The notes under the pieces are model-generated. The model had not been told where the DNA came from. It did not search any database and was given only the letters and a program-made list of their open reading frames with translations. A DNA stretch of 46,180 bases from the NCBI GenBank assembly GCA_023245235.1, contig JAHFKT010000002.1, positions 16,803 to 62,982 on the forward strand, given 5' to 3'. Of this stretch, positions 11,717 to 34,853 are shown piece after piece. Source of the stretch: Candidatus Yanofskybacteria bacterium (GTDB lineage Bacteria > Patescibacteriota > Minisyncoccia > 2-02-FULL-40-12 > GWA2-44-9). The translations under genes were made by a program, and so were the position numbers. Numbering within the stretch: the first letter of the stretch is position 1; each line of letters opens with the position of its first letter.

Positions 11717-13591
11717 TTAATAGGACAATATGATATGGACCCGGCTCCGGTCGTGCGGAATTGACCTGACCCATAGCGGGGACAAAAGGACATTGGCTGA
11801 CGCGACATCCGGAAGGCCCTTCAGGTAATCCCGGATCTGAGTGCCATTTTTACCTATCAGGTCCGATATAAGCCGCTCCTGGTCTATCTTTTTGAATCCC
11901 GGACCTTTGACCGAAACGGTGAAGCTCAGGGCGTTCGTGATCGGATTGAACTGGATGTTCTGGTATTCCACGGCCAAAGAGTCGGCCCGTGCGACCAGGC
12001 TGTACTTAGCGTCGACATATTGGCTGATAAGCCCCTGAAGGTCAGACTCTTTGAATCCGACGGTTTTGAGCGAGCCGGCGATATTCATAGTGAACGTATC
12101 GGCGGCATCATCGACCGCGGCCGTTGAATCGACCTTGTCGACATTGACCTGGGAATCGCCGATGACCTTCAATCCGGCGATCTCCGACTTCAGTTCGTCG
12201 CTGACCGACGTCTTCAGCCGGTCCGTCAATGTGTCTTTGGCCTGGCTGTAATCGCCGGCCGCCACGACGCTTGCCTTACCGCTGGTGCCGCCGTGCATCG
12301 CGGCATCGGATTGGCCGTAAATGTTTTCGTACTTTACCGCGTCTCCTTTTTCGTGGAATGCGGGGATGGTGAATGTTCCGGCGGCGATATTAAAATCCTG
12401 GCCGGCTTTATCGGCTATGACCTGAATGATGACCTTGCCCGGCACCGTGGAATTTTTAGCGGCCGGAACTATCACTCCCTGCAGGGTGTGGAAGATATGA
12501 TGATCCGCCGACTCAAAGCGCGTCGTGGCGACCAACTGCTGGGCGGCGGAAGTTTTATTATACGCGGTAATGATACCGCGGGCCTTCTGGGCGACGTCCT
12601 GCGATCCGGTCGCATGGAAATCCTGCGATACCTTTTTTTCGATCGTGAACAGCTGCCCCGGGATCTTCAGGTCGCCGACGCTTACCGACGAAACCGTGTC
12701 GGCCGCGGTCACGTTCAATTTAAGGTCGAGAGGTTCCGATTGAGGCTTGATGGTGATCTCGGCGGTTCCGGTCGAAATGTATATGACGACGCCGAACAGT
12801 ACCAGCGCGACTGCGCCAAAGCCGACCATCGTACGATGGTAGCCGTTTTTGGGCGTGAACTTCTTGACCGAAAGTTTGGGTCCGGGCCATGAGGACCAGA
12901 AACTCGGTATCGCTTTCTTAGCCGGCATGACGGACGTGCCTGATTGCCAGACGGTTTTTATCTCATCCAGCGCCCGCCGTTCAAGGGCCTCGCTTTTAAA
13001 ATCATGGTGAACATCTATGGGAGCCCGTTTTTCACGGACAGCGGAAATTTTCACATCCCGCTTTTTATCATAATCCACCTGAACGATATCCTGCATCTTG
13101 CGGGAAGGGGCGGCCGGTGCTTCGATTTCGTCCTCCTCATCTTGTCCGCCGTCATCGGCCGGTTGTTCGTCAATCGCCTGCTCATCCGGAACTTCCGGCC
13201 GCGAGGGTTCAGGCACCGGCTTTGGTTGAACGACCGGCGCCGGAGTTTGTTCGTAGAAATCTTCAATCTCGTTGACCATACTGATGGAGCCCGATTCACT
13301 GCGGGGCGTGCCGGACTTCCTGACCGGCGAGGATGAGCGCGTCAACAGGACGTCAAAGCCGTATTTTTTGGCCATTTCGTTGAGTTCCGCGTTCGAACAA
13401 AGAAATGAAACGGCCTTGCCGAGCTGTTTTGTTTCCTTCTTGAGCTCGGAGAAATGCTCTTCTTTTTGAAATGCTTTCGAACGTTTGGGCAGGACGAAGA
13501 TAACCTCCTCGGCCGGCGTTGCTTTGAAGAGTTCGAGGATCTCCTTAAAGGAGTCATCCTTTAAAACATTGATAATCTTTGTTGAAGCCAT
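11717..13591 (-). CDS. membrane-anchored baseplate J/gp47-like domain protein
   Basis: N-terminal domain, acidic linker, single TM, KARGIITAYN...LVATTRF...ADKAGQDFNI...GGTS, terminal LSPLWVRSIP. Confidence 0.7.
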   Translation of the reverse strand: MASTKIINVLKDDSFKEILELFKATPAEEVIFVLPKRSKAFQKEEHFSELKKETKQLGKAVSFLCSNAELNEMAKKYGFDVLLTRSSSPVRKSGTPRSESGSISMVNEIEDFYEQTPAPVVQPKPVPEPSRPEVPDEQAIDEQPADDGGQDEEDEIEAPAAPSRKMQDIVQVDYDKKRDVKISAVREKRAPIDVHHDFKSEALERRALDEIKTVWQSGTSVMPAKKAIPSFWSSWPGPKLSVKKFTPKNGYHRTMVGFGAVALVLFGVVIYISTGTAEITIKPQSEPLDLKLNVTAADTVSSVSVGDLKIPGQLFTIEKKVSQDFHATGSQDVAQKARGIITAYNKTSAAQQLVATTRFESADHHIFHTLQGVIVPAAKNSTVPGKVIIQVIADKAGQDFNIAAGTFTIPAFHEKGDAVKYENIYGQSDAAMHGGTSGKASVVAAGDYSQAKDTLTDRLKTSVSDELKSEIAGLKVIGDSQVNVDKVDSTAAVDDAADTFTMNIAGSLKTVGFKESDLQGLISQYVDAKYSLVARADSLAVEYQNIQFNPITNALSFTVSVKGPGFKKIDQERLISDLIGKNGTQIRDYLKGLPDVASANVLLSPLWVRSIPHDRSRVHIILSY

Positions 13592-14829: not shown

Positions 14830-15381
14830 TTAGGCTCGGGCGGTGTCTGATTGAAGCTGAAGCTCCGACTTATGACGCTCCAGCGGAATATACTCGTGAG
14901 CCAGTCTGACCAGTTCGCGGGATGCCTGTTTCTCCCATGAGACCACGATGGTATGGATCTTTCTGCGGCGCTCCTGGACCCGTTTCAGTAACGGGCAGAA
15001 ATCGCCGTCGCCGGAAAAGAGCATGATGGTGTCGACGGGACCGTTGTGGAGAGTGTCCATCACGTCGATGGCGATCTCCACATCATGATTGCCGAACGAA
15101 TGCACGGTCCCCTTTTGCGTGTCGTATACCCTCCGGATCTGCTTTTCGCGGACCGTGAATCCTTTGTCTTTGAGCATGTGCCCGAACCCGCTGCCATGCC
15201 GCTCATGTTCGAGCCGCATGATGTCGAAATCGATGATATAGATGAACCGGTTGGTAACGGTACCGAACCGGTCGGTCAGTTCGATCAGGCGGTCAAAATC
15301 CATGTCCCAGCCGCGGTTGGTCGGGCAGATGTTATGGAAATCAATGAATACGCTGACGAGTGCCTGTTCCGGCATTTTCAA
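14830..15381 (-). CDS. NYN-domain (LabA/DUF88, PIN-like) ribonuclease
   Basis: VFIDFHN, GNHDVEIAIDVM, LFSGDGDFCPL, SRELVRLAHEYI. Confidence 0.88.
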   Translation of the reverse strand: MKMPEQALVSVFIDFHNICPTNRGWDMDFDRLIELTDRFGTVTNRFIYIIDFDIMRLEHERHGSGFGHMLKDKGFTVREKQIRRVYDTQKGTVHSFGNHDVEIAIDVMDTLHNGPVDTIMLFSGDGDFCPLLKRVQERRRKIHTIVVSWEKQASRELVRLAHEYIPLERHKSELQLQSDTARA

Positions 15382-15432
15382 TGTCCATTGATGCCCATAT
15401 ATTACAATTAAATTCTGATTTGGTCAAATAAA

Positions 15433-15460
15433 GCAAAGAGCGCCTGTGGAGGCGCTTTGC
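15433..15460 (-). terminator. intrinsic terminator of the 23S-like RNA
   Basis: minus strand GCAAAGCGCC-tccaca-GGCGCTCTTTGC followed by TTTATTT. Confidence 0.7.
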
Positions 15461-15469
15461 AAAGAACCA

Positions 15470-15763
15470 GTCGAGGATGCCTGTGCGGGCTCATCCGTCC
15501 CGCCAGCATGGCCGCAAAACGATGTTGTTGTGCGGAGCGGCAATGCTGTGTTTAGGCTTACCTGTGATCAGCAGGTGGATTCCCTTGGGTTTCGTCGGTA
15601 TTGCCCGGCGTGACTTATGCCCGAGGTACTCAGGAGCCGGTTAGCTTGATCCTGCGATGGTTCAAGCAGATAGCCGGTCCTACAACCCCAGCCGGCACGG
15701 CTGGTTTGGCCTGATCCCGTCACTGGGACTCACTGTTGTTTTGCTCAACAGACATCCCTCGAC
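15470..15763 (-). ncRNA. candidate ncRNA mimicking the core of 23S rRNA domain I
   Basis: terminal 15-bp stem; collinear 23S motifs AAAACAACAGUGAGUCCC, GGGAUCAGGCCAAACC, GGGGUUGUAGGAC, UCCUGAGUAC, GGAAUCC, AAGCCUAAACAC; own promoter and terminator. Confidence 0.75.
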
Positions 15764-15770
15764 AAGATCT

Positions 15771-15800
15771 ATGATAACAGAGCCCGGAGCCGGTCGTCAA
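15771..15800 (-). promoter_or_regulatory. sigma70 promoter of the 23S-like RNA
   Basis: TTGACG-18 bp-TATCAT with extended -10 TG; predicted +1 near 15764. Confidence 0.65.
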
Positions 15801-15805
15801 AGATG

Positions 15806-17665
15806 CTAGTCCACAACTGCACGGATGCGCCGGGCGCCGCCGGAAACCGACTCTTCCTTAGTGATAGTGATGCGGCCGATCTCGCCGGTATGGGTCACGT
15901 GGGGGCCGCCGCAGAGCTCCCGGCTGAACCAGTTCTTTTCGTCGCCGATGGTGTAGACCTTCACCCGCGGCGGATATTTAAGCTTAAAGAAAGCCGAAGC
16001 GCCGGAATCCAGTGCTTCCTTCAGATCCATCTCTTGAGCGGTCACCGGCAGATCTTTGGCTACGATATCGTTGGCGATATCTTCGGCCTGCTTCAATTCT
16101 TCCGGAGTGACCTTGCGCGGAAAAGTAAAATCAAAACGCAAACGCTCAGCCGTGATGTCCGAACCGGCCTGGGGTAACTTCTGGCCGAGCACTTTCTGAA
16201 GCGCGGCGACAATAATATGGGTCGCGGTATGGAGGCGGGTTTTCTTCTTCATTTCTTCGGCATCCCCCGCCGTCAGGTCGCCTTCTTTCATTCCGTGTCC
16301 GCCGAATTTCTTCCCGGCTCCGGCGCGGGATATCTCCTGATGGCGCTTTCGTTCTGTCTCAAAATCTTCCCTGGTCAGCCCCGAAGCTTTGTTCCGGGCG
16401 ACCTCGCGGATGACCTCGAACGGCAGGCCGAAGCTTTCATATAACCGGAACGCGGAGACGCCGTCGACAGAATCGAGCTTTTCAAGTTCCCGAAGACCGT
16501 TCTTGAATGTTTTCTGGAATTTTTCATTCTCCGCGTCGAATGCCGATTTTATTTTCTCGATATTCAATTCGGGATAGTAGGCACCGCAGAGCTCAACGAT
16601 CTTTTCAAAGATGTTATGGATGGCTTCGAGTTCGATACCGTTCAGATGGCATTGGACGATGACCCGGCGCATCAGGCGGCGCAGAACATAACCCTGCTCT
16701 TTATTCGAGGGCACTATGCCGTCAGCGATAAGAAACGCCGCCGCCCGGCTATGGTCGGTAATGATGCGTTTGACCCGTTCATCAACGCCGTCATCCGGCA
16801 GTATCTGTATGAGCGGCTCGAAAACGTCCGTCGAGAATATGTCCGGTTGGTTTTGTGCCGCCGCCGTGATCCTTTCAAAACCGCCGCCGAAATCAACATT
16901 CCGCTGCTTGAGGAGTTCGAAAGTTCCGTCAGGCAGTTTTTTGTACTCCATAAAAACGCTGTTGCCGATCTCCAAAAATCTTCCGCAGTCGCAATTGGGA
17001 TGGCATTCTTTGCCGTATGAAGGGTCATGAGGAACATCAAATTGATAGAATATCTCCGAATCTGGGCCCCCGGGCTCCCCCGCGGGCATTGTGTCCGGCC
17101 TCCCGGCCCGTGACCACCAGTTCTTTTCGGCACCATAAAAAAATATGCGGCTATCCTTCATGCCGACCTTTGATGCGTTGGCGAGAGTTATGAGATCGGC
17201 CTCTTTCGCATCAATGCCGGCCTCTTCGAACAGCTGTTTCCAGATAGCCGGGGATTCCGTGTCTCTGGGGATGCCGTTCTTTTCGTCACCGGCAAAAACC
17301 GTCACATAGAGCCGCGCCGGATCAATGCCGACCTCTTTCGTCAGAAATTCAAATATCCAGGCCAGTTGTTCTTTCTTCCAATAATCGCCGAATGACCAGT
17401 TGCCGAGCATCTCAAAGAATGTCGTATGCCGGTTATCGCCCACCTCATCAATATCGTCGGCCCGAAAGGACTTTTGAATATCGGCGATGCGTTTCCCGAG
17501 CGGGTGGGGCTCTCCCAGAAGATACGGCATCATCGGCTGCATGCCTGATCCGGTAAAAAGCGTGGTCGCGTCATTTGCGGGCAACAGTGAAGACGAGGGC
17601 ACGATGACGTGCTTTCGGGCTTCGAAAAAATCCAGAAATTTTTGGCGTATCTCATGGCTGGTCAT
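15806..17665 (-). CDS. alaS: alanine--tRNA ligase, short form without C-Ala domain
   Basis: TLFTGSGMQP, RHTTFFEMLGNWSFGDY, RLHTATH, ELCGGPHV, RRIRA at terminus. Confidence 0.95.
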   Translation of the reverse strand: MTSHEIRQKFLDFFEARKHVIVPSSSLLPANDATTLFTGSGMQPMMPYLLGEPHPLGKRIADIQKSFRADDIDEVGDNRHTTFFEMLGNWSFGDYWKKEQLAWIFEFLTKEVGIDPARLYVTVFAGDEKNGIPRDTESPAIWKQLFEEAGIDAKEADLITLANASKVGMKDSRIFFYGAEKNWWSRAGRPDTMPAGEPGGPDSEIFYQFDVPHDPSYGKECHPNCDCGRFLEIGNSVFMEYKKLPDGTFELLKQRNVDFGGGFERITAAAQNQPDIFSTDVFEPLIQILPDDGVDERVKRIITDHSRAAAFLIADGIVPSNKEQGYVLRRLMRRVIVQCHLNGIELEAIHNIFEKIVELCGAYYPELNIEKIKSAFDAENEKFQKTFKNGLRELEKLDSVDGVSAFRLYESFGLPFEVIREVARNKASGLTREDFETERKRHQEISRAGAGKKFGGHGMKEGDLTAGDAEEMKKKTRLHTATHIIVAALQKVLGQKLPQAGSDITAERLRFDFTFPRKVTPEELKQAEDIANDIVAKDLPVTAQEMDLKEALDSGASAFFKLKYPPRVKVYTIGDEKNWFSRELCGGPHVTHTGEIGRITITKEESVSGGARRIRAVVD

Positions 17666-17711
17666 TGTGGTTACTCTATCAAAAATCCCGTGTTCATTCA
17701 AACAAAAAGCC

Positions 17712-18068: not shown

Positions 18069-19106
18069 ATGCCTGAGCCACGCTGTCCGGTCGACTGCCT
18101 GCTTCATGACCATGGCGACGGCGCCTATCCGCTGGCCATTGTTCTGCGCGACCTGTTCACCATGGCCGGGAAAGCGATACCCGACAATGCTGACCTCGTG
18201 GCGCAGGTCCGGAAAAAGTTCCAGGACCCGCACGCGGACATCATCGAGGCCTTCTCCAATACCACCGGCGTCCTGCAAACCTGGGATGCCTTGTTCCTGG
18301 CCGCTCACAACCATGTGGTCGTCCGGGCCTCACAGGGCATCCGGTACGCCGAGGTAATGTTCGCGCCCCAGTACCACGGGTTCCAGGGTCTCACGCCCAA
18401 ACGGGCCGTGGAGGCAATCATTGCCGGTATTAAGTCAGGCGAACAGAAATGTCCCGACATTGAGGTCAATTTCCTGGCCGCTATCGGCCGTGAATTGAGC
18501 CCCGAGCAGGCCATTGAGCTCATCAAGGTCTTTGAAGAGTGCGACCGGAACTATCTGGTCGGTATTGACTGGGTATGCGACGAGGCGGCATTTCCGCCGG
18601 AACGGCACATCAAGTCAGTCCGGTATGCCCACGATGCAGGATTCCCGGTTGATTTCCACGCATCCGAATGGGTCCGCGGTCCCCACGACACGCCCGACTT
18701 CTGGCGCGACCTGCCGCAGCTGGTCCAGAATTTGAATATTGCGATGAGAGTAATGCGGTGCAAACGCATCGGGCACGGTATTGCCCTGCCCTATGCTCCC
18801 ACCCTGATGCGCTACGCCCTCATCAATCAGATCGGCATTACCGGTTGCCCCGGTTCCAATCTTCAGGGTCAGAATGTGCCGGACCTGGAAGCTCTCCAAA
18901 TTACGCAAATGCTTGATTCCGGTATTTTGTGGTCAATGAATCCCGATGACGATTTCTTCCAGCCGGATATCAACGAGGTCTATCAGGCCTGCGACCGGGT
19001 CTACTGCTTCACCGCCGAACAGCGCATGAGAATGCGCCTGAACGCGTGGAAGACAAGGTTCGGGAAACGCAAACCGGTCCCGAACGATATTGCACCGCTC
19101 ATCTGA
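18069..19106 (+). CDS. adenosine/adenine deaminase family protein
   Basis: HDHGDG, YAEVMFAP, FHASE, RIGHG, CPGSN, NPDDD. Confidence 0.88.
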   Translation: MPEPRCPVDCLLHDHGDGAYPLAIVLRDLFTMAGKAIPDNADLVAQVRKKFQDPHADIIEAFSNTTGVLQTWDALFLAAHNHVVVRASQGIRYAEVMFAPQYHGFQGLTPKRAVEAIIAGIKSGEQKCPDIEVNFLAAIGRELSPEQAIELIKVFEECDRNYLVGIDWVCDEAAFPPERHIKSVRYAHDAGFPVDFHASEWVRGPHDTPDFWRDLPQLVQNLNIAMRVMRCKRIGHGIALPYAPTLMRYALINQIGITGCPGSNLQGQNVPDLEALQITQMLDSGILWSMNPDDDFFQPDINEVYQACDRVYCFTAEQRMRMRLNAWKTRFGKRKPVPNDIAPLI

Positions 19107-31128: not shown

Positions 31129-31201
31129 GGGGGCTATGGTGAAACGGTTATCACAGCGCTCTGTGGAAGCGCGGTCATGGGTTCAATTCCCATTAGCCCC
31201 C
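31129..31201 (+). tRNA. tRNA-His(GUG), G-1 encoded
   Basis: GGGGGCTA/TAGCCCCC acceptor, GCGCT-CTGTGGA-AGCGC anticodon arm, GGTTCAATT T-loop. Confidence 0.95.
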
Positions 31202-34603: not shown

Positions 34604-34675
34604 GCCCCCGTAGCTCAATGGATAGAGCAGGGCTCTTCTAAGGCCTTTATGTGGGTTCGATTCCTACCGGGGGTA
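34604..34675 (+). tRNA. tRNA-Arg(UCU)
   Basis: cloverleaf, CT-TCT-AA anticodon loop, GGTTCGATT. Confidence 0.95.
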
Positions 34676-34698
34676 CAAGAGATGTTGATAGAAATGAC

Positions 34699-34769
34699 CG
34701 GGATGTAGTGTAACGGTAGCACGAGACGTTTGGGACGTTTTAGTCCGGGTTCAAATCCCGGCATCCCGA
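34699..34769 (+). tRNA. tRNA-Pro(UGG)
   Basis: CGGGATG/CATCCCG acceptor, TT-TGG-GA loop, GGTTCAAAT. Confidence 0.95.
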
Positions 34770-34782
34770 CAAAGTGAATACT

Positions 34783-34853
34783 GCGGGTATCGTATATCGG
34801 TAATACATGAGTTTTCCAAACTCAAGAGGCGGGTCCGACTCCCGCTACCCGCT
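34783..34853 (+). tRNA. tRNA-Gly(UCC)
   Basis: GCGGGTA/TACCCGC acceptor, TT-TCC-AA loop; T-loop variant TCCGACT. Confidence 0.93.

Follow-up and report, generated by a model that had tools for sequence, protein, structure and literature searches.

Copies of ribosomal RNA sites outside the ribosome are familiar from the leaders of ribosomal-protein mRNAs. Such leaders (L1, L10, L20, S8, S15 and others) are short elements of the 5' UTR, each modelled on a single binding site, and were reportedly treated by Meyer in 2018. Split or fragmented rRNA genes, which occur in organelles and in some bacteria, provide a second precedent: one stretch of the rRNA is encoded separately, and the main gene then lacks it. 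A third comes from RNAs that act as mimics or decoys, such as 6S RNA, bacterial Y RNA with its tRNA-like module, and tmRNA. To our knowledge, mimicry of rRNA itself is known solely as short cis sites in ribosomal-protein mRNAs, and a full-text search of the literature found no stand-alone mimic of a 23S domain.

We describe here an RNA of 234-294 nt, encoded by a few tiny groundwater bacteria, that resembles each of these systems and departs from each. Like the leaders, it copies an rRNA site outside the ribosome, and the likely logic is the same, namely competition for an rRNA-binding protein; unlike them, it is a separate gene and copies a junction of about seven helices. Like a split rRNA, it is a separately encoded counterpart of a stretch of large-subunit rRNA, but here the main 23S gene keeps the corresponding segment intact. 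Like 6S RNA, Y RNA and tmRNA, it would be a stand-alone, stable and abundant RNA that works by resemblance to another nucleic acid, although what it mimics is an rRNA domain and it has no Rfam match to any of the three. In Y RNA the mimic module also sits above a long stem formed by the 5' and 3' ends, an arrangement seen here too. Identity as a Y RNA was considered and rejected: the TROVE domain of Ro60 (PF05731) has no match in the genome, which is 95% complete, and no Rfam Y RNA model matches. We rate the RNA as a new kind of RNA gene, neither a cis leader nor a split rRNA, a rating tempered by the small number of sequences and their narrow distribution.

The gene lies in a stretch of 46,180 nucleotides, hereafter the window, from an assembly (G000) of 826 kb in 42 contigs, a size that falls in the range of Patescibacteria/CPR genomes. 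Its surroundings, in window coordinates, are as follows.

15806-17701, minus strand: alaS (alanyl-tRNA synthetase), upstream of the RNA
15771-15800, minus strand: predicted sigma-70-type promoter, TTGACG, 18-nt spacer, TG-extended TATCAT (scan)
15763-15470, minus strand: the RNA gene, 294 nt
15439-15456, minus strand: predicted intrinsic terminator, a hairpin then a U run (scan)
14830-15381, minus strand: NYN-domain gene, directly downstream of the RNA in this genome
13615-14793: Dus-family gene (dus), downstream, beyond the NYN gene

An earlier note on this DNA had proposed a stand-alone miniature of 23S domain I at 15470-15763. Its sequence and coordinates are as it gave them, with every quoted motif in place (on the minus strand, AAAACAACAGUGAGUCCC at 15742-15725, UCCUGAGUAC at 15635-15626 and AAGCCUAAACAC at 15559-15548), and both the promoter and the terminator that it named were recovered by our scans, at 15800-15771 and 15456-15439 respectively. 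The promoter scan found three promoter-like sites in an 801-base stretch, compared with 0.6 expected in shuffles, and the position of the promoter predicts a +1 of the RNA at about 15763. The scans were applied to G000 only; by eye, the same promoter layout, TTGAC(A/C/G), about 17-18 nt and TGnTAnnAT, is present at all six homologue loci described below, as is a GCGCC..GGCGC hairpin followed by a T run on the 3' side of the RNA.

The RNA belongs to no described family. A search of the whole window with Rfam 15 (4227 models) at the gathering score returned four tRNAs only, in agreement with the earlier claim that the window holds no other rRNA. The four tRNA genes, at 31130-31201 and 34604-34853 on the plus strand, include three that are tightly clustered. 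A permissive scan of 15350-15850 at E<=10 gave four chance-level hits (E 0.94-4.1), none of them to LSU rRNA; the expectation that no known family would match was thus borne out, and the partial LSU hit that had been predicted alongside it did not appear. Correspondingly, the bacterial LSU model (LSU_rRNA_bacteria, RF02541, gathering score 50 bits) did not call the RNA in the window and had no match in G012, G013 and G056, genomes that all carry the RNA.

The likeness to 23S rRNA emerges when the parts of the RNA are compared with the LSU consensus block by block.

15748-15763, minus strand: 5' strand of the closing stem P1, not rRNA-like, pairing with 15470-15484
15732-15739, minus strand: H12-like mini-hairpin with a GA(A/G)nAAA block before it, LSU model positions about 218-232
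15714-15729, minus strand: H13-like hairpin, five pairs, 100% paired, two changed on both sides
15709-15712, minus strand: 5' strand of H14, AGGC, pairing with 15554-15557 (GCCU)
15688-15704, minus strand: hairpin equivalent to LSU model positions 274-299, between CAAACC and GGGGUUGUAGGA
15633-15680, minus strand: base of H18 (GGA.. / ..UCC) with a short variable hairpin replacing the H18-H20 arm
15583-15626, minus strand: H21-like hairpin, 3' of the junction UGAGUA, five of six pairs changed on both sides
15560-15576, minus strand: H22-like hairpin, 3' of the junction GAAnC
15548-15559, minus strand: AA, GCCU (3' strand of H14), AAACAC
15485-15547, minus strand: 3' extension, not rRNA-like, with helices CAGn...nCUG and GCGGG...CCCGC
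15470-15484, minus strand: 3' strand of the closing stem P1 (alignment pair count)

The blocks follow one another as they do in 23S rRNA: GAAGAAA..CAA with the H12 mini-hairpin; the H13 base, GAUUCC / GGGAA; the four pairs of H14; CAAACC, a hairpin and GGGGUUGUAGGA; the base of H18; CCUGAGUA; the H21 hairpin; GAA; the H22 hairpin; and AAG-GCCU-AAACAC. This order, asserted in the earlier note, is real when set against the Rfam LSU consensus, where it spans model positions of about 218-475. Our helix numbers differ slightly from those first assigned, and the hairpin at model positions 274-299 does not keep its former name, H15. What the RNA shares with 23S domain I of RF02541 is the order of the helices and the near-identical strands that join them (GAAGAAA.CAA, GAUUCC...GGGAAGAGGCCAAACC, GGGGUUGUAGGA, CCUGAGUA, GAA and AAGCCUAAA.AC). 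It also differs in several ways: 23S rRNA has about 2900 nt, whereas the RNA and its homologues have 234-294 nt, and each has a promoter, a terminator and a closing stem of its own. A mere hairpin stands for the H18-H20 arm, the loops are not conserved, and a 3' extension has been added.

We quantified this likeness with a covariance model, R1, which was built from two sequences, the RNA and its first homologue, and was used for all searches with a model of the RNA. A pattern that contains two of the blocks, AGGCYAAACC..GGGGTTGNAGGA, was searched in genome contigs, and 23S-type loci of many phyla are among the matches listed (at least 120 stretches). Eighty of these loci, whose record titles point to rRNA-bearing contigs of other phyla, were searched with R1, which gave 73 matches of 17.8-49.6 bits (best E 1.4e-14), scores that are inflated because the loci were selected by the pattern. 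Nevertheless, the R1 match extends well past the selecting pattern. The alignments listed take in H12 to H14 with the hairpin that follows, H22 and the AAGCCUAAA block, and they fail against real 23S rRNA in the closing stem and the 3' extension. The best scores among these preselected loci came from Erysipelotrichaceae, Marinilactibacillus, a Myxococcales MAG and Mycoplasmatales. An R1-guided alignment of six RNAs with 33 23S rows from the pattern-selected loci (one truncated row was left out) has 125 columns shared by the RNA and 23S rRNA, 63 of which are invariant in the six RNAs. At 42 of these 63 the RNAs carry the base that is present in 90% or more of the 23S rows, and at none do they carry another base where the 23S rows agree to this degree; the selecting pattern had by itself fixed about 22 of the 42.

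One argument for selection that had been drawn from this likeness does not stand. The H14 pair AGGC/GCCU had been read as a compensatory swap; the same variant is present in 23S-type loci of several other phyla and, being natural there, is not by itself evidence of selection. The claim of a selected structure survives on other grounds, namely covariation among the six homologues.

Folded on its own, the 294-nt sequence has a z score of -3.4, and none of 200 shuffles folded as well. RNAalifold, run on a MAFFT alignment of the six distinct sequences, returned the 23S-type helices, the closing stem and two further helices on the 3' side. Across the 62 pairs, 93.8% of cells are paired. The number of pairs changed on both sides was 23 of 62, compared with 11.0 +/- 2.1 in shuffles (0 of 500 reached 23) and 1-10 when partners were slid by one to three columns; these counts come from six related sequences and from a structure derived from the very alignment on which it was tested, and relatedness is not taken into account in the shuffle control. 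The RNA has, then, homologues in which compensatory changes keep the helices, as is expected of a conserved structured non-coding RNA.

The changes are spread over both the rRNA-like and the added parts (all counts are for six sequences). The closing stem P1, whose existence had been proposed from a single sequence, is confirmed and covaries: it has 13 pairs, with 92.3% of cells paired and three pairs changed on both sides. In the 3' extension, helices 10 and 11 have four and five pairs, each with two changed on both sides. One of the two pairs of the H12-like mini-hairpin covaries, four pairs of the hairpin at 15688-15704 are changed on both sides, and the helix at the base of H18 has seven pairs, two of which are changed on both sides. 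The stem of the H22-like hairpin varies in sequence among homologues with its pairing maintained. H14 behaves differently: AGGC/GCCU, equivalent to LSU model positions 266-269 / 464-467, is invariant in all six sequences, and the AA-GCCU-AAACAC block that contains its 3' strand is invariant save for one inserted G in G012; real 23S rRNA reads AAG(G/C)CUAAAUAC at that block. Sequence constraint thus sits in the joining strands and helix bases, and the loops and the H18 arm vary freely in length. The H13-like hairpin keeps its stem base with a loop of 6 to about 38 nt, the H21-like loop ranges from 4-5 nt up to about 30 nt, and the spacing from the GGA block to the CCUGAGUA block is 16-43 nt in homologues, the arm of real 23S rRNA (that of the same genome) being far longer. 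The sense strand is free of stop codons over at most 40-72 aa, and the lengths of homologues do not differ by multiples of three; together these make a conserved reading frame unlikely.

The earlier note had pointed to the region downstream of alaS as the place to seek homologues, and six distinct sequences with covarying helices were indeed found there. They come from four of 62 genomes of the family (G000, G013, G012 and G056, all identified by R1) and from two metagenome contigs (L129 and L130). Homologues are 234-291 nt long, and R1 scores on the RNA and its homologues are 86-336 bits. The two contigs were found with a pattern, related to the short-arm pattern described below, that matched three metagenome contigs, the third of which, L128, is identical to the G012 copy. 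Other searches add little to this list. BLAST in 40 relatives gave one weak match, in G013. R1 found the same four carriers among 105 genomes of the order, and G000 and G013 alone among 151 genomes sampled from the class; a pattern that demands a short H18 arm matched these same two among 401 genomes sampled from the phylum. Viral contigs, phage records and plasmid records contained no match.

All six homologues lie downstream of alaS, and five of the six are shown to lie upstream of dus; the L129 locus ends 354 nt past the RNA, and its dus side is therefore not shown. Directly 3' of the RNA the gene differs: it encodes an NYN protein in G000, a Y1 transposase-like protein in G056 and a PaaX_M/Cas2-like protein in L130, and is dus itself in G013 and G012. 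The interval between the RNA and dus can thus be seen as a variable gene slot (window 14830-15381, minus strand; L130:3941-4477; L006:1850-2521). In relatives that lack the RNA, alaS adjoins dus with spacers of about 18, 200, 265 and 390 nt, and R1 with filters off found nothing above 5.6 bits in these spacers. A further genome, G048 (L134 / L146, G048:C19:1-1745), has a 43%-identical NYN gene and dus at the start of a contig. Any RNA there would lie off the contig, and four of 62 may consequently be an underestimate; the G048 assembly may have broken at an rRNA-like RNA gene, leaving carriers undercounted.

The relation of the RNA to the 23S rRNA of its own genome bears on both its origin and its function. 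A search of the whole genome with the LSU model gave one match, covering positions 1-2925, on another contig. Domain I of this gene is intact, with 700.7 bits over positions 1-981 and H12-H22 present, and the region is nearly identical to that of G049, a family member without the RNA. The intact domain means that the RNA is neither a missing piece of the ribosome nor a repair of a defective domain. The gene itself (L001, G000:C14:6860-10257, minus strand) is 3398 nt long, as against 2925 positions in the model, and the H18 arm of its domain I contains an inserted AU-rich segment of about 80 nt; the same insertion is found in G049 (L144), whose 23S gene is 3169 nt. Among five genomes searched with the LSU model, one matched, and G012, G013, G056 and G053 yielded no assembled 23S gene.

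With filters off, R1 scored 49.6 bits on Erysipelotrichaceae 23S rRNA and found nothing in domain I of the 23S genes of G000 and G049, its best scores in these two loci being 7.5 and 10.2 bits, outside domain I. We conclude that the RNA is no recent copy of the 23S rRNA of its lineage. Family 23S genes differ in several junction blocks at which the RNA holds the general bacterial consensus. The RNA either derives from another lineage or is itself an old paralogue that has been under strong constraint.

The sequence is also present in an RNA library from the same sample, where contigs fall on 15511-15763 only and show no differing letters. One contig, with a word depth of 93.9, spans 15511-15721, and the other, with one of 28.7, spans 15692-15763; none was found on 15000-15510 or 15764-16300 in this library, and a DNA run of the same sample spans 15075-16300 at a depth of 10.6. 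DNA contigs from two runs cover parts of the locus without differences. The contig at 15511-15721 holds 38 nt of the extension that is not rRNA-like, and it does not, therefore, derive from the 23S rRNA of another organism. One RNA contig ends at 15763, the predicted +1, which is a weak hint, as contigs show neither strand, ends nor level. The metatranscriptome comparison suggested in the earlier note accordingly bears on presence, with the sequence found and its flanks uncovered, and strand and ends are not readable from contigs. A fold-back RNA contig at window 15692-15763 (run X3, record 6), in which 27 nt of the plus strand are joined to a minus-strand read, is probably an assembly artefact at a hairpin.

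Overall, we are confident that this is a real functional RNA that keeps the core fold of domain I. As to what it does, we tentatively favor, with somewhat less than even confidence, a decoy or scaffold mechanism, in which the RNA works in trans by mimicry on a protein that recognizes the domain I junction. The RNA would have descended from a fragment of a 23S rRNA gene and become independently transcribed. Of domain I it retains the core of the junction (H12 to H14 with the hairpin that follows, the base of H18, H21 and H22). The H18-H20 arm is gone, as are all specific loop sequences, and a new stem made from the 5' and 3' ends closes the whole. Because only the junction core is strongly constrained in sequence, we infer that the RNA probably folds like the core of domain I. 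Acting in trans, it would bind a protein that reads this junction on nascent 23S rRNA, the candidates being ribosomal proteins of the large subunit and assembly factors, helicases included, and could titrate, store or chaperone that protein, coupling its free pool to ribosome assembly. The RNA is dispensable, as most relatives are without it (58 of 62 family genomes have no match), and its narrow, patchy distribution likewise implies that its role is not essential.

The protein bL28 was considered as a partner. Old cross-linking work reportedly placed L28 near 23S positions 195-242 and 368-424, a placement that would agree with what the RNA has retained. When the family was scanned with Pfam for bL28, the matches were weak (22 of 62 genomes at E<=0.001, four of them over the cut-off), too weak to bear on co-occurrence, and showed no relation to the presence of the RNA; in this weak scan G013 carries the RNA and has no bL28 match. 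The genes neighboring the RNA (alaS, NYN, dus, Y1 transposase-like and PaaX_M-like genes) include none for a ribosomal protein or an assembly factor. In yeast, the DEAD-box helicase Has1 is docked on H16 and forms crosslinks with H21/H22 in domain I of 25S rRNA (PMC9196750), and in E. coli reconstitution H21/H22 take on their mature shape in a state named for uL2/bL28 (PMC9935924). These two studies imply that proteins reading this region of domain I exist.

There is a more specific form of this proposal. The RNA would be a captured and miniaturized piece of foreign 23S rRNA, possibly that of a host or neighbor, which folds like the core of domain I and is joined by one or more large-subunit proteins, or by an assembly factor, in a free-standing "mini domain I" particle, an abundant extraribosomal RNP that tunes ribosome production in a symbiont with a reduced genome. 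We regard this version as possible but doubtful. Against mimicry in trans as a whole stands the difference between the RNA and its own 23S rRNA in several junction letters: a protein adapted to that rRNA might in consequence not read the RNA.

The same difference can be turned toward a separate explanation, that the junction is an exapted scaffold, retained as a stable, self-folding core whose present job has nothing to do with the ribosome; the variable arms or the 3' extension might, for example, be presented to some other partner. The parts that are not rRNA-like (helices 1, 10 and 11) are conserved and covary as well, and the loops that make ribosome contacts have not been retained, both of which are consistent with such a use. 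However, the joining strands follow the bacterial 23S consensus almost letter for letter, beyond what a generic scaffold would need, and the variable arms show no conserved sequence to present. We consider the exapted scaffold unlikely, although it is the strongest of the rivals to mimicry in trans.

Mimicry could also serve protection. The RNA might be a decoy for an attacker of domain I of 23S rRNA (a nuclease, a toxin or a modifying enzyme), whether from a phage, a competitor, a host or a toxin gene of the cell itself, and would then resemble an RNA antitoxin or a defense element. The slot after the RNA holds nuclease-type or mobile genes in G000 (NYN), L130 (PaaX_M/Cas2-like) and G056 (Y1 transposase-like), the presence of the RNA is patchy, as with defense genes, and the RNA resembles foreign 23S rRNA more than its own. 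Yet G013 and G012 carry the RNA without such a neighbor. NYN paralogues, at about 25-30% identity, are present in 53 of the 62 genomes of the family, with or without the RNA, which makes co-occurrence with NYN uninformative, and the absence of matches in viral contigs, phage and plasmid records also argues against a defense element. No toxin directed at this part of 23S rRNA is known to us. A protective decoy thus appears improbable to us.

It is very improbable that the RNA is instead a cis-acting leader, forming with its terminator an attenuator of dus or of the inserted gene that responds to a protein binding the rRNA-like fold. Its position upstream of dus at five of six loci, with a terminator after it, would suit such a role, but at three loci unrelated genes separate the RNA from dus and the RNA is still kept. 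Moreover, the NYN gene of G000 is preceded by a separate promoter-like site at 15427-15399 (scan), no alternative anti-terminator pairing is evident, relatives keep alaS and dus adjacent without the RNA, and the contigs of the RNA library fall on the RNA and none on the downstream gene.

Two further readings are hardly tenable. That the RNA is a piece of the ribosome supplied in trans, as the earlier note had suggested, or a replacement for a defective domain I, draws on the likeness to domain I and nothing else, and is largely refuted by the 23S gene of the genome, which matches positions 1-2925 with an intact domain I nearly identical to that of G049, and by the 58 family genomes in which the RNA has no match. 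A functionless, decaying rRNA scrap or an assembly chimera might be suspected, as MAG assemblies break at rRNA-like sequence and the NYN-dus pair of G048 stands at a contig start, but the covarying helices and the RNA library, which holds the sequence with its flanks uncovered, speak against a scrap, and a chimera, a possibility raised earlier, is refuted by the same gene downstream of alaS in six separate assemblies, each with promoter, terminator and closing stem, and by agreeing DNA contigs of two runs.

As a gene of its own in which a multi-helix rRNA junction is preserved in full, this RNA would represent a new class of bacterial non-coding RNA. Ultra-small bacteria lack many standard regulators, and if the RNA binds ribosomal proteins or assembly factors, it would reveal a new regulation of ribosome biogenesis in these cells. 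Work on folding and early assembly would also gain a piece of domain I that is naturally minimized and folds independently; should the mini domain I particle prove real, it would be the first trans-acting mimic of an rRNA domain and a natural minimal model of early 50S folding. The resemblance of the RNA to foreign 23S rRNA makes one ask how fragments of rRNA come to be captured and domesticated. On a practical level, rRNA-like genes of this kind can interrupt metagenome assemblies and can pass for scraps of rRNA.

The neighborhood has other features in common between loci. After dus comes a protein of about 600 aa without a Pfam match (window 11717-13591, minus strand; L130:462-2270, minus strand), which may be a conserved unknown neighbor. 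The alanyl-tRNA synthetases are short, at 574-631 aa (window 15806-17701, minus strand; L129:1140-2864; L130:4894-6639), and in Pfam they match the catalytic and second additional domains and no C-terminal domain. Between alaS and the promoter of the RNA, G012 (L007:1860-2000, minus strand) and L129 (660-1090, minus strand) have small hydrophobic ORFs, without a Pfam match where tested. Finally, an adenosine-deaminase-family gene lies divergently upstream of alaS both in G000 (window 18069-19106, plus strand) and in L129 (3453-4523, plus strand), and synteny therefore reaches beyond alaS.
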